A stretch of 64,000 bases of DNA from an uncultured Chloroflexia bacterium (GTDB lineage Bacteria > Chloroflexota > Limnocylindria > Limnocylindrales > CSP1-4): the NCBI GenBank assembly GCA_963766675.1, contig CAVYBA010000002.1:1274806-1338805 (forward strand). Direction: 5' to 3'. The stretch's first letter is position 1. Every line of letters begins with the position of its first letter. This document shows positions 34,752 to 37,782 of this stretch, one piece after another. The notes under the pieces are model-generated. The model made no database searches. It was not told the origin of the DNA and was given only the letters and a program-made list of their open reading frames with translations. Position numbers and translations under genes: made by a program.

Positions 34752-35711
34752 TCATGCCGATCGCGCCTCCCGGACGATGTGCGTGCCGGCCTGGCCACGA
34801 ACCGCGTCGCGGAGATGCGGCGGATCGGTGATGATCGCCTCGCGCCCGCCGCGCTCGAGATACCAGATGCAGGCCTCGATCTTGGGCGCCATGCTGCCGG
34901 CCGCGAAGTGCGTCCCCTCGGCCAGGTAGTGCTTGGCCTCGGCGAGAGTCAGCGTGTCGATCCAGCGCTGCTCCGGCTTGCCGAAGTCGAGGGCGACCCG
35001 CTCCACTGCCGTCGCAATGACGAACACGTCCGCCCCGAGCTCGCTGGCCAGCAGCGAGCTGGCGAAGTCCTTGTCGATGACGGCCGGGACGCCGTGCAGG
35101 TTGCCCTCCGCGTCGCGGGCGACGGGGATCCCGCCACCGCCCACGGTGATCACGACGAACCCGGCAGCGGCGAGGACCTTGACCGCCGGGAGCTCGACGA
35201 TGCTGGTCGGGATCGGCGAGGCGACGACGACGCGCTTGCCCCGTCCGGCGTCCTCGACGATCGTCCAGCCGTCCGCCTGGCGCCGGGCGGCCATCTCCTC
35301 GTCGAGGAAGGAGCCGATCGGCTTGGTCGGGTGCGTGAACGCGGGGTCGGTCCTGCTGACCTCGACCTGGGTGACCACGGTCACGGCCTGCTTGTCGATC
35401 CCGCGGCGAGCGAAATCGTGGCCCATGGCCTGCTGGAGCTCATAGCCGATGGCGCCCTGCGTATCGGCGCCGCAGACGTCGAGCGGCACCTCGTGCAGCT
35501 CGTGGGCGGCCAGCTCGGAACGACGCAGGATGAACCCGACCTGGGGGCCGTTGCCATGGCCGATCGCCAGGCGCCAGCCATCCTCGACCAGCGCCGTCAG
35601 GTGGTGGCTGGTTTCCTCGAGGGCGGCCATCTGGTCCGGGACCGACTGATGGGCCTTGTCCTTGATCAGCGCGTTCCCGCCGATCGCCACGACCATGAGT
35701 GGACTCGTCAT
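34752..35711 (-). CDS. carbamate kinase
   Basis: 319 aa. Motifs VVAIGGNAL, HGNGPQVG, VITVGGGGIPV, VIDKDFAS, GSMAPKIEA. The longer ORF to 36746 overlaps the next gene and is rejected. Confidence 0.85.
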   Translation of the reverse strand: MTSPLMVVAIGGNALIKDKAHQSVPDQMAALEETSHHLTALVEDGWRLAIGHGNGPQVGFILRRSELAAHELHEVPLDVCGADTQGAIGYELQQAMGHDFARRGIDKQAVTVVTQVEVSRTDPAFTHPTKPIGSFLDEEMAARRQADGWTIVEDAGRGKRVVVASPIPTSIVELPAVKVLAAAGFVVITVGGGGIPVARDAEGNLHGVPAVIDKDFASSLLASELGADVFVIATAVERVALDFGKPEQRWIDTLTLAEAKHYLAEGTHFAAGSMAPKIEACIWYLERGGREAIITDPPHLRDAVRGQAGTHIVREARSA

Positions 35712-35812
35712 GTGCTCTTCTCCCCGGCGCAGGGCCGGCATGCGGCAGGTCGTCGGATGCGTCGCTCGCCGGCCCGGCCAACCGGCCGGGGCTCGGCGGG
35801 CGGGTGGTCGCC

Positions 35813-36790
35813 TCAGCGCATCGTCAGGGCCATGACCGCCTTCTGGGCGTGGAGCCGGTTCTCGGCCTCGTCGTAGACGACCGAATGCGGGCCGTCGATG
35901 ACCGCGTCGGCCACTTCGACGTTCCGTTCCGCCGGCAGCGGGTGCATGTAGATCGAGTCGTCGGCGGCCAGTGCCATCCGGCGCTCGTCGGTGATCCAGT
36001 CGGTGTACTTGAGCCCGATCGCGGCGCCCTCCTCGTCGTTCCTGGCGACGAGGAGCGGGCCCCAGCTCTTGGCGTAGACGACGTCCGAGCCCTTGAACCC
36101 GGCGTCGAAGTCGTCCATCAGCTCGAGGCTGCCGCCCGACTTGCGGGCGTTCTCGGCGGCCTGCTCGACGTACTCGGGGACGAGCCTGTACTCCGGCGGG
36201 TGGACCAGCCGGACGTTCATCCCGAAGCGGGTCCCGGCCAGGGCCAGGTCGATCGGCACGCTCATCGGCTTCTGGTAGCTGGCCGCATAGGCCCAGCTGA
36301 CCGTCAGCGTCTTGCCGCGGAGGTCGCCCTTCTTCTCGCGCATGGTCAGCAGGTCGGCCAGGATCTGGTGCGGGTGGAACAGGTCGCACTGCATGTTGAG
36401 CACGGGCACGCGGCTCGCCGCGGCCACCTCGCGCATGTAGGTGTTGCCGATACCCCAGTCGACGTTGCGGATGGCGATCCCGTCGTTGTAGCGGCCGAGG
36501 ATCTCGCCGATCTCGCGGGCGGTGTCGCCGTGCGAGATCTGGGTCGTCCGCGATTCGATGAACTGGGCGTGGCCACCCAGCTGCGCCATGCCGGCCTCGA
36601 ACGACGCGCGGGTACGCGTGCTCGAGAAGAAGAACAGCATGGCAAGGACCCGGTCCTCGAGGTATTTGTGCGGGCGACCCAGGGCGCGGTCCGTCTTCAG
36701 GCGGGCCGCAACCTCGAGGATCGTCTCGACCTCCTCGGTCGTCCATTCCTGGAGCGAGATGAGGTCCCGGCCGCGAAGGCCCGTCTGCAT
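35813..36790 (-). CDS. YgeW-type (knotted) carbamoyltransferase
   Basis: Blocks SSTRTRASFE, TQISHGDTAREI, GNTYMREVAAA, LNMQCDLFHPHQILADL, VSWAYAASYQKPMSVP ... TRFGMNVRLVHPPEY and YMHPLPAERN align block by block with my recollection of E. coli YgeW. RBS AAGGAGA. Confidence 0.8.
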   Translation of the reverse strand: MQTGLRGRDLISLQEWTTEEVETILEVAARLKTDRALGRPHKYLEDRVLAMLFFFSSTRTRASFEAGMAQLGGHAQFIESRTTQISHGDTAREIGEILGRYNDGIAIRNVDWGIGNTYMREVAAASRVPVLNMQCDLFHPHQILADLLTMREKKGDLRGKTLTVSWAYAASYQKPMSVPIDLALAGTRFGMNVRLVHPPEYRLVPEYVEQAAENARKSGGSLELMDDFDAGFKGSDVVYAKSWGPLLVARNDEEGAAIGLKYTDWITDERRMALAADDSIYMHPLPAERNVEVADAVIDGPHSVVYDEAENRLHAQKAVMALTMR

Positions 36791-36828
36791 GGCAGTCTCC
36801 TTGAGGGTTCGGAGTTCGGGTGCCAGGC

Positions 36829-37782
36829 CTACTCGGCCGCGCCGAGGATCAGGGCGAGCATGCCCATCTTCAGGACGACGCCGTTGAACGCCTCGGCCCA
36901 GTAGCGCTGGTGGCGGGTGGCGTCGACGTCGGCCAGGAGCTCGTCCATCCGTGGCAGCGAGTGGAGGATGATCGAGCTGCGCTTGGCCTTCTCGCGCAGG
37001 AGCTCGCGGGTGACGCAGTACTCGGGCGGTGTCAGCCCGACCTGGTCGCTGCGTTCGACGCGCGACGCGGTGTAATCGGCCTGGACGACCGGCTCCATGT
37101 AGATGACGTCGGCCTGGTCGATGACGTCGCGGACGTCCGCGGCCTCTTCGTAGTCGACGTTGAGCGCGTCGATCTCGGCCTTGAACTCCGGCAGCAGGCT
37201 CATCTCCGGCGGCCCGACGACGATCGCCTTGGCATCGAACTGCGACAGCGCGTACAGGATCGAGTGCATCGTCCGCATCCGCATGTCGCCGACCAGCACC
37301 CAGGTCAGCCCGTCAAGCGTGCCCTTCTCGAGGAGCGTGGTGTACAGGTCGGTCAGCACCTGGGTCGGGTGCTCGCCCCAACCGTCGCCGCAGTTGATGA
37401 CCGGCACGGACGCCCACTTGGCCGCCTCGGCCGGCGCGCCCTGCTGGAAGTGACGGATCGCGATGACGTCGGCGTAGTACTCGAGCATATGGAACGTGTC
37501 CTTGATCGACTCCTGGTAGAAGTCGCCGGCGCGCGTCATCTTCGAGTCGGAGAAGCCGAGGACCTGGCCGCCCAGTCGGTGCATGGCGGCCTCGTGCGAC
37601 AGCCGCGTCCGGGTCGACGGCTGGTAGAACGCCGTCAGCATCGTCTTGTTCTTGAGCAGGTCGGTGTTGCGACGGTCGCGAGCGAAGGGGCGCAGGTCGT
37701 CGGCGACCTGGAAGACGCGAAAGAACTCGTCCCGACTGAAGTCCTTGAGGGACAGGATGTCGCGACCGAGGAAGCTCCTCAT
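36829..37782 (-). CDS. PyrB-like carbamoyltransferase paralogue with a non-canonical amino-acid site
   Basis: Carries QPSTRTRLSHE, IAIRH, GEHPTQVLTDL, GDMRMRTMHS and LHSLPRMDEL, as in ATCase catalytic chains. The region equivalent to TRVQKER reads EPVVQAD. Confidence 0.75.
   Translation of the reverse strand: MRSFLGRDILSLKDFSRDEFFRVFQVADDLRPFARDRRNTDLLKNKTMLTAFYQPSTRTRLSHEAAMHRLGGQVLGFSDSKMTRAGDFYQESIKDTFHMLEYYADVIAIRHFQQGAPAEAAKWASVPVINCGDGWGEHPTQVLTDLYTTLLEKGTLDGLTWVLVGDMRMRTMHSILYALSQFDAKAIVVGPPEMSLLPEFKAEIDALNVDYEEAADVRDVIDQADVIYMEPVVQADYTASRVERSDQVGLTPPEYCVTRELLREKAKRSSIILHSLPRMDELLADVDATRHQRYWAEAFNGVVLKMGMLALILGAAE

Follow-up and report, generated by a model that had tools for sequence, protein, structure and literature searches.

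A 64,000-nt stretch of a contig from an uncultured Chloroflexia bacterium (CAVYBA010000002.1; hereafter the window, ~70% G+C) encodes on its minus strand two different carbamoyltransferases (CTases), followed by a carbamate kinase: CTA, which resembles aspartate carbamoyltransferase (ATCase) (36829-37782, 317 aa), CTB, of the YgeW type (35813-36790, 325 aa), and a homologue of the kinase YqeA (34752-35711, 319 aa). The best reading we can offer is that this block would serve the later, energy-conserving steps of a variant reductive urate pathway, in which CTA replaces the hydrolase YgeY and both ureido groups of 2,3-diureidopropionate would be converted to carbamoyl phosphate, with a gain of two ATP per urate; we assign to it a probability of about 0.65. 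This reading is carried by the loss of ATCase substrate-binding residues from CTA, by the conserved arrangement of its gene with that of CTB in two phyla, and by the almost mutually exclusive occurrence of CTA and YgeY.

The reductive urate (2,8-dioxopurine) pathway was worked out experimentally by two groups in 2025 (PMC12507026; bioRxiv 10.1101/2025.04.24.650524). Urate is converted to 2,8-dioxopurine by XdhD or XdhAC, followed by reduction by YgfK and ring opening by SsnA, which leads to ureidomethyl-hydantoin, from which HyuA generates 2,3-diureidopropionate. YgeW then uses phosphate to release carbamoyl phosphate, from which YqeA makes ATP, and the mono-ureido intermediate that is left is hydrolysed by YgeY to 2,3-diaminopropionate, which YgeX converts to pyruvate (PMC12507026; bioRxiv 10.1101/2025.04.24.650524). 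The two papers disagree as to whether YgeW cuts the 3-ureido or the 2-ureido group; the 3-ureido group is the one given by Liu et al. 2025. An earlier note on this DNA, made from the sequence alone, had proposed that two dedicated CTases could release both ureido units of a purine from a mono- or di-carbamoylated 2,3-diaminopropionate, and the intermediate that it guessed is exactly the 2,3-diureidopropionate of the known pathway (PMC12507026; bioRxiv 10.1101/2025.04.24.650524).

Because of the high G+C content most of the open reading frames (ORFs) listed for the window are spurious, and genes were picked by the G+C content at third codon positions (GC3). By this measure, minus-strand genes form one long series between ~40.7 and 18.7 kb, and a divergent plus-strand set starts at 41.0 kb. 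The order, coordinates and spacers that the earlier note gave for the three genes agree with our analysis: the ORFs are as it described them, in frames supported by GC3, with 38 nt including an AAGGAGA motif between CTA and CTB, and 101 nt between CTB and the kinase. It had also remarked on the absence of arginine deiminase, its antiporter and any ureidohydrolase, and indeed no arcA, arcD, M20, amidase, hydantoinase or pyr gene was detected when the GC3-supported ORFs of the window were scanned with Pfam, while tblastn searches of all 64 kb with E. coli YgeY, YgeX and HyuA returned no match at E<1e-5. CTA is preceded by genes for two pyridoxal phosphate (PLP) enzymes, PALP1 and PALP2, with ATGA stop/start overlaps between PALP1 and PALP2 (39170-39173) and between PALP2 and CTA (37779-37782), which suggests that PALP1, PALP2 and CTA are coupled in translation and that the two PLP enzymes might also associate with CTA in a complex. 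The 101-nt spacer was considered as a structured RNA or attenuator and rejected, for its folding energy does not differ from that of shuffled sequences (z = -0.74), and a search of 28-41 kb for sigma-70 promoters and intrinsic terminators revealed nothing exceeding chance.

CTA comprises the Pfam domains OTCace_N and OTCace; it exceeds the cutoff of the ATCase model TIGR00670 (246.4 bits vs. 236.95) and stays below that of NF002032 (215.7 vs. 263), and its top match among solved structures is the ATCase of P. abyssi. In an alignment with E. coli PyrB the carbamoyl-phosphate site is retained (STRTR, R105, which is R110 in CTA, and HPTQ), with these motifs invariant in 119-120 of 120 relatives, taken as cluster representatives, and so is R167, the residue that binds the α-carboxylate in ATCase. 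On the other hand, K83 and K84 of PyrB are replaced by D87 and Y89 in an 80s loop that reads TRAGDFYQES, and R229-x-Q231 is lost, positions 229-231 being aligned as P-V-V by HMMER and as A-S-R by MAFFT. The TRxQxER segment, which binds the β-carboxylate of aspartate, is substituted by EPVVQADY and a short insertion, and HSLP(R) stands for HPLP(R). The altered motifs are invariant across the 120 cluster representatives, which argues that CTA is under selection as an enzyme. Since K84, R229 and Q231 are lost, CTA cannot be a biosynthetic ATCase; neither pyrI, pyrC nor carAB is present among the scanned ORFs of the window, and no pyr gene was seen among the recurrent gene clusters inspected in 81 loci that encode CTA, which were probed only with proteins of the purine cluster.

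In a full HMMER search that covered 1.84 billion representatives, the clade of CTA is made up of two or three clusters, all with >=75% identity, followed by a gap down to <=49%. The next relatives (<=49%) are ATCase-like proteins, which we regard as further pseudo-ATCases, with an R-A-G-D 80s loop, without TRxQxER and with highly varied 240s loops, and canonical ATCases, all of which possess both aspartate-site motifs, begin only at <=41% identity to CTA. Public databases name all the relatives of CTA 'aspartate carbamoyltransferase'. Barba et al. 2013 defined pseudo-ATCases by an ATCase-II-like sequence, a lost RxQ, an altered HPLP and a context other than that of pyr genes; all these features are found in CTA, whose gene lies beside those for a carbamate kinase and purine enzymes, and judging from them we classify it as a pseudo-ATCase in this sense and not as a true ATCase. 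A degenerate ATCase-like ORF (12154-13062 of locus L118, on a 2.9-Mb metagenome contig with 42% G+C) was encountered after a cluster of YgeW, PALP1, YgeY and carbamate kinase; it reads SGLLTR for STRTR, TGIE for TRxQ and DPLS for HPLP, and may represent another lineage of pseudo-ATCases or an inactivated one.

CTB, also composed of OTCace_N and OTCace, shares 36% identity with E. coli YgeW. It is about equally close to the models of ornithine carbamoyltransferase (OTCase) and N-acetylornithine carbamoyltransferase (AOTCase), and it falls below every cutoff: when assessed as an OTCase it scores 256 bits vs. cutoffs of 306 and 281, and it stays under the cutoffs for OTCase, AOTCase and putrescine carbamoyltransferase as well as under those of the YgeW equivalogs (174.5 vs. 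500 for TIGR03316, 191 vs. 453 for NF005538). The public annotation is ornithine or N-acetylornithine carbamoyltransferase. It is the active site that links CTB with YgeW: the putative second-substrate residues of YgeW are Q98, D124, Q160, S200, K203, K270, D334 and E344 (PMC4581275), and their equivalents in CTB are Q84, N109, Q134, S171, K174, K241, E288 and E292, so that seven out of eight are kept, with the substitution of D124 by N109 as the exception; at the position of E288, 114 of 120 relatives have D. E. coli OTCase differs from YgeW at most of these eight positions. CTB and YgeW also have in common an extended 120s loop, and where OTCase has DxxxSMG and HCLP, CTB reads AKSWGPL and HPLP. 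It does not possess the extra N- and C-terminal helices and the two-helix insertion in the 240s loop of YgeW (~396 aa). The attribute 'YgeW-type', which the earlier note gave to CTB, thus stands with regard to the residues of the active site and the 120s loop, and does not with regard to the NCBIfam equivalog cutoffs and the extra helices. As to the trefoil knot in the C-terminal domain, which YgeW and AOTCase have in common, the AlphaFold2 model of CTB is weak (pLDDT 67), and Foldseek ties the unknotted OTCase with the knotted AOTCase. In many metagenome loci (e.g. L094) the gene immediately after YgeY is similar to CTB (43-55% identity); in these clusters a CTB-like enzyme occupies the slot of YgeW beside YgeY. 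That one of the two CTases is the sole biosynthetic ATCase or OTCase of the organism, which the earlier note regarded as one outcome that would speak against its hypothesis, is unlikely in view of the residues and motifs missing from CTA (K84, R229, Q231) and from CTB (DxxxSMG, HCLP).

A scan of species-representative genomes identified at least 586 stretches encoding a relative of CTA, in Chloroflexota (Limnocylindria-type metagenome-assembled genomes, the closest to the window) and Actinomycetota (Gaiellales, Thermoleophilia, Acidimicrobiales). The best 80 of them (75-95% identical) were used, with at most 10 kb taken in on each side of the match; the CTA set comprises 81 loci, 47 of which have >=8 kb on both sides of CTA and form the full-flank subset. 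In this subset CTB is present within 10 kb in 47/47 loci, PALP1 in 45, PALP2 in 42, a molybdenum (Mo) hydroxylase in 42, SsnA in 38 and carbamate kinase in 35, while YgfK and HyuA-like genes are found in nine and six, respectively. YgeY is encoded in just one full-flank locus (two of all 81), and YgeX in none of the 47 or the 81. The gene directly downstream of CTA is CTB (49/74), the hydroxylase (21/74) or the kinase (2/74; L058, L077), and PALP2 is directly upstream in 54 out of 72 loci. The conserved adjacency together with the presence of CTB in all full-flank loci across two phyla implies that the arrangement of CTA and CTB is not due to chance. The type of reductase varies: besides YgfK, there are F420/luciferase-like proteins (16 loci, e.g. 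L032, L046) and a PydA/UacX-like type that consists of a DHO_dh and 4Fe-4S protein (nine loci, e.g. L040, L043); the same variation was noted by Li et al. 2025. Single-linkage clustering of all ORFs from the loci lumped families together, since stop-to-stop ORFs become overlong at high G+C, and was used only for spotting additional recurrent genes.

The reciprocal sample, a metagenome scan anchored on YgeY, provided 80 loci with 30-70% G+C. A YgeW-type CTase, either the long YgeW or the short CTB-like form, is encoded in 61 of them, a PALP1-like enzyme in 37, a ThrC-like enzyme in 28 and both PLP enzymes in 24, carbamate kinase in 22, HyuA in eight and YgeX in five; in a subset, PALP1 is present in 15/23 loci. 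A gene of the CTA family is found in none of the 80. Taken together, CTA and YgeY co-occur in two of 161 loci, with the other modules common to both sets, and are thus almost mutually exclusive, which indicates that they serve the same catabolic step. The swap can be observed directly in two high-GC loci (L127, L162), where PALP1 (65-66% identical) and PALP2 are not followed by CTA and are accompanied by YgeY and YgeW, with or without carbamate kinase. In consideration of this near-exclusivity, a second phosphorolysis in place of hydrolysis, as the earlier note had it, appears to fit the genomic data best.

The genes upstream of CTA may account for the fate of the product. PALP1 (39170-40669, minus strand, 499 aa) is a CysK/OASS-like PLP enzyme, with a Pfam PALP domain, CysK-like matches and additional helices that extend both termini; it has K112 and an STGN loop. 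Its AlphaFold2 model (pLDDT 85) retrieves CysK, CBS and β-cyanoalanine synthase as the top Foldseek matches. These are enzymes of β-substituted-alanine chemistry, and PALP1 is a candidate lyase of 2,3-diaminopropionate, itself a β-substituted alanine. PALP2 (37779-39224, minus strand, with the likely start at 39173, in the ATGA overlap with the PALP1 stop) is a PLP enzyme that resembles threonine synthase (Pfam PALP, 134 bits), with a CxxC...C ribbon at its N terminus, remote ThrC-type matches and the lysine motif SGSHKAR. Neither is considered an orthologue of YgeX, to which the similarity is at the superfamily level only. The pair of a CysK-like and a ThrC-like (Zn-ribbon) enzyme, and not YgeX, also accompanies YgeY and YgeW (e.g. 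L088, L090, L094, L130). It is a common environmental alternative to YgeX, independent of CTA, and to judge from sequence it looks like an undescribed substitute for diaminopropionate ammonia-lyase.

Divergent to this operon lie genes for the upstream steps, all on the plus strand, and because of these surrounding genes the block can be placed in the reductive urate pathway. The first (41005-43638) encodes a fused 2Fe-2S and molybdopterin hydroxylase of the Se-dependent xanthine dehydrogenase (XDH) type (DOPDH/XdhD; TIGR03311, 946 bits vs. a cutoff of 830; Pfam Fer2_2, Ald_Xan_dh_C and MoCoBD_1/2), predicted to convert urate to 2,8-dioxopurine. Starting 24 nt past its stop codon, an N-terminally shortened SsnA-like amidohydrolase (43662-44684, 340 aa; NF005540, 254 bits, below the cutoff of 444) is 32% identical to residues 54-438 of E. 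coli SsnA and lacks the first ~53 residues; other loci carry the full-length SsnA type. It would be responsible for ring opening of the reduced dioxopurine. The third gene (44617-48099, true start probably near 44698) encodes a YgfK-type Fe-S flavoprotein, i.e. a dioxopurine reductase (TIGR03315, 848 bits vs. 835), 35% identical to YgfK over the full length. It is followed on the minus strand by an 8-oxoguanine deaminase (48150-49541; NF006055, 683 bits vs. 532), which may feed urate into the pathway; we considered this amidohydrolase as the missing hydantoinase and rejected it, given the equivalog match. Similar genes are found directly upstream of CTA in Acidimicrobiales loci L057, L060, L065, L068 and L073. 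On this evidence the cluster is classified as a variant of the 2,8-dioxopurine cluster that has the Se-type hydroxylase, YgfK, the SsnA-like enzyme and 8-oxoguanine deaminase and is devoid of YgeY, YgeX and HyuA. The AT-rich intergenic region between the operons of PALP1 and the Mo hydroxylase (40670-41004) is probably a shared promoter/operator region; it shows no match to the sigma-70 consensus. It contains a perfect palindrome, TACCGAAG-N5-CTTCGGTA, at 40839-40859, unique in the window, with 0 expected by chance; as a conserved operator it was rejected, since it is found in no related locus.

The carbamate kinase exceeds the cutoff of its model (NF009007, 394 bits vs. 266) and has 50% identity to E. 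coli YqeA; loci L030 and L078 have two carbamate-kinase genes each. Downstream of it and in the same orientation there is a BMP/PnrA-type ABC transporter (29781-34694) with two permeases, a binding protein and an ATPase (Pfam BPD_transp_2 twice, Bmp, ABC_tran), which recurs in several related loci. Its scores with the NCBIfam models named 'putative B6 ABC transporter' do not reach the cutoffs, and from its location within a purine-catabolic operon it probably takes up a purine or nucleoside instead. The operon continues on the same strand with a class I/II aminotransferase and a transketolase-like thiamine pyrophosphate protein (26052-29643); of these, the aminotransferase is found again beside PALP1 in two loci (L018, L066), one of which (L066) also has the transketolase-like gene. 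Beyond a LysR regulator, a pyruvate:ferredoxin oxidoreductase and a 'dihydroorotate dehydrogenase-like protein' (20291-25095, minus strand; the latter NF005741, 413 bits) are encoded, a possible link from pyruvate as the end product to low-potential reductant.

From these elements we propose the following mechanism. The Mo hydroxylase, YgfK and the SsnA-like enzyme would convert urate to 2,3-diureidopropionate or a cyclic precursor thereof. CTB would phosphorolyse one ureido group, most likely the 3-ureido group, as reported for YgeW by Liu et al., and CTA, in the place of YgeY, would phosphorolyse the remaining Nα-(2-)ureido group to leave 2,3-diaminopropionate. The Nα-ureido group is favoured for CTA because of its ATCase ancestry, the retained R167 and the precedent of an allantoate-cleaving enzyme in Rubrobacter, and this assignment fits the order of cleavage according to Liu et al. 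The kinase would use both molecules of carbamoyl phosphate with ADP, to yield two ATP per urate as compared to one in E. coli and none in C. difficile. PALP1 and PALP2, in the place of YgeX, would deaminate diaminopropionate irreversibly to pyruvate, and the unfavourable phosphorolysis could be pulled forward because its product is removed in this way; the downstream pyruvate:ferredoxin oxidoreductase could return reducing equivalents.

Compared with the pathway of E. coli and C. sporogenes, the window shares the clustering of a Se-type Mo hydroxylase, YgfK, an SsnA or SsnA-like enzyme, a YgeW-type CTase and carbamate kinase, and the route from ureido group through carbamoyl phosphate to ATP. 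It differs by the absence of YgeY, YgeX and HyuA, in whose stead there are a second, ATCase-derived CTase and two unrelated PLP enzymes, by the shortness of its YgeW homologue (325 aa), by the hosts, which are soil Chloroflexota and Actinomycetota in contrast to gut bacteria, and by the expected yield of two ATP per urate instead of one. In the variant of C. difficile, UacY amidohydrolase replaces YgeW and YqeA, which results in two hydrolases and no conservation of ATP (Li et al. 2025). The ureido-cleaving steps are modular there, with hydrolases and phosphorolytic enzymes exchangeable as we propose here, but the exchange runs in the opposite direction, towards two hydrolases instead of two CTases and no hydrolase. 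The swap of CTA for YgeY is plausible because of this documented opposite exchange and of the resulting series of zero CTases in C. difficile, one in E. coli and two in the window.

The only pseudo-ATCase assayed is the ureidoglycine carbamoyltransferase (UGTCase) of Rubrobacter xylanophilus (Rxyl_2847, pseudo-ATCase subgroup 1), which converts allantoate to ureidoglycine and carbamoyl phosphate (Barba et al. 2013). Like CTA, it is an ATCase paralogue without RxQ, encoded beside a carbamate kinase in a purine-degradation cluster. Its phosphorolysis is directed at the α-ureido group of allantoate, which as a diureido acid is comparable to diureidopropionate. It is set apart from CTA by its motifs (HPLA and AIA vs. 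HSLP and EPVVQ) and by its participation in the aerobic allantoin route with no second CTase alongside, whereas CTA has CTB. A pseudo-ATCase of subgroup 2 from Nocardioides sp. JS614 (A1SH59) adjoins a ygeW homologue, with xdh genes following and hyuA nearby, and its function was left open (PMC4016543). Its motif label, 'HSLP' as read from the tree, and its ygeW-homologue/xdh context liken CTA to this subgroup; it represents a single genome with 'GX[SC]' at positions 230-232, and CTA does not read GX[SC] in either alignment. Among the papers in the library searched, none of later date takes up this pairing described in 2013. Finally, the arginine and agmatine deiminase pathways also couple ureido phosphorolysis to ATP formation by carbamate kinase, but they use one CTase each and require a deiminase and an antiporter, both of which were not found in the window.

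Could CTA nevertheless be the biosynthetic pyrB of the organism, located beside purine genes by chance? The TIGR00670 cutoff is passed (246 vs. 237), the database names invariably read 'aspartate carbamoyltransferase' and the best solved structures are ATCases, but the loss of K84 and R229-x-Q231, HSLP in place of HPLP and the failure with NF002032 contradict this, as does the lack of nearby pyrI, pyrC and car genes in the window and in the 81 loci, the latter probed with purine-cluster proteins only. Moreover, CTA always appears with CTB in purine-catabolic clusters of two phyla, and in the genomes analysed by Barba et al. 2013 genuine ATCases are encoded in addition to the pseudo-ATCases. 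We therefore regard this as extremely improbable. Less remote, although still very doubtful, is the idea that CTA works in the direction of synthesis, using carbamoyl phosphate produced by CTB to carbamoylate diaminopropionate or another amine, or that it assists the PLP enzymes as a partner with no catalysis of its own. The equilibria of carbamoyltransferases do favour carbamoylation, CTA shares translational coupling with two β-replacement-type PLP enzymes, and transcarbamylases of diaminopropionate and diaminobutyrate exist in antibiotic biosynthesis. The cluster, however, is catabolic throughout and contains no biosynthetic genes, the carbamate kinase is adjacent (in two loci directly after CTA), and the same step suggested for CTA and YgeY by their near-exclusivity also counts against carbamoylation, while a pseudoenzyme is disfavoured because all the carbamoyl-phosphate-binding motifs are strictly conserved.

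The alternative that deserves the most attention, albeit an unlikely one, is that CTA phosphorolyses another purine ureide, i.e. allantoate or ureidoglycine in the manner of UGTCase, or the exocyclic ureido group of ureidomethyl-hydantoin or 5-ureido-dihydrouracil, and thereby bypasses the mono-ureido intermediate of the E. coli type. Allantoate is the substrate of the sole characterized pseudo-ATCase, no hydantoinase was found in the window, where SsnA is divergent and shortened, and a few related loci contain an allantoinase/hydantoinase-like gene. Yet no uricase, allantoinase or allantoate-pathway gene is present among the scanned ORFs of the window, the motifs of CTA (HSLP/EPVVQ) are not those of UGTCase subgroup 1 (HPLA/AIA), and the exclusivity with YgeY would be left unexplained; cyclic ureides are disfavoured because the conserved R167 implies a free α-carboxylate, which cyclic intermediates do not have. 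We also dropped the ideas that a PLP enzyme opens 5-amino-dihydrouracil by β-elimination or that a CTase opens the hydantoin ring by phosphorolysis, as in both cases the product could not be processed by the genes of the cluster and the carboxylate-binding residues would be at odds with the substrate.

Several observations weigh against the reading we prefer, in which CTA acts on the second ureido group in place of YgeY. HyuA is missing from the window and from 41 of the 47 full-flank CTA loci, so in most environmental clusters the hydantoin-opening step towards diureidopropionate has no obvious gene. This gap is not specific to the clusters with CTA, because HyuA is equally rare beside YgeY (8/80); by way of speculation, the hydantoinase may be encoded elsewhere in the genome, or the shortened SsnA-like enzyme may carry out both hydrolyses at the same carbon. 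Two loci (L050, L053) carry a YgeY homologue along with CTA, CTB and carbamate kinase, and therefore the replacement is not absolute. Each set of loci was sampled on one marker gene, which makes the exclusivity of CTA and YgeY a descriptive result without a formal test of independence. The division of labour between CTA and CTB could be reversed, because the published studies disagree on YgeW. The model does not explain why two PLP enzymes are needed, and we infer the activities of the CTA clade and of PALP1 and PALP2.

The cluster departs from the published forms of the pathway and has at its centre one member of the little-studied pseudo-ATCase radiation. On balance we believe, with little margin for certainty, that it represents a urate route widespread in soil bacteria, which would save both ureido groups by means of two non-orthologous CTases and one kinase, and that the pseudo-ATCase clade would be a new phosphorylase of Nα-carbamoyl-2,3-diaminopropionate (or diureidopropionate). 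If this is true, it would be the first demonstrated route by which each of the two ureido units of a purine is tapped for ATP, and it would complete a series of zero, one and two CTases, in which the energy yield is tuned by the exchange of a hydrolase for a phosphorylase. It would also provide a function for a tight clade found in at least 586 stretches and uniformly misannotated as aspartate carbamoyltransferase, whose partners are annotated as ornithine/N-acetylornithine carbamoyltransferase and cysteine synthase, and the CysK-like/ThrC-like pair would constitute a new diaminopropionate-deaminating system that replaces YgeX. The cluster offers an independent handle on the question of which ureido group is cut first: the ATCase ancestry of CTA, together with the mutual exclusivity of CTA and YgeY, would be separate evidence for the order of Liu et al., i.e. 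the 3-ureido group first (by YgeW) and the 2-ureido group second. In terms of ecology, reductive urate degradation would no longer be confined to gut anaerobes and would also be found in Chloroflexota and Actinomycetota that are abundant in soil.

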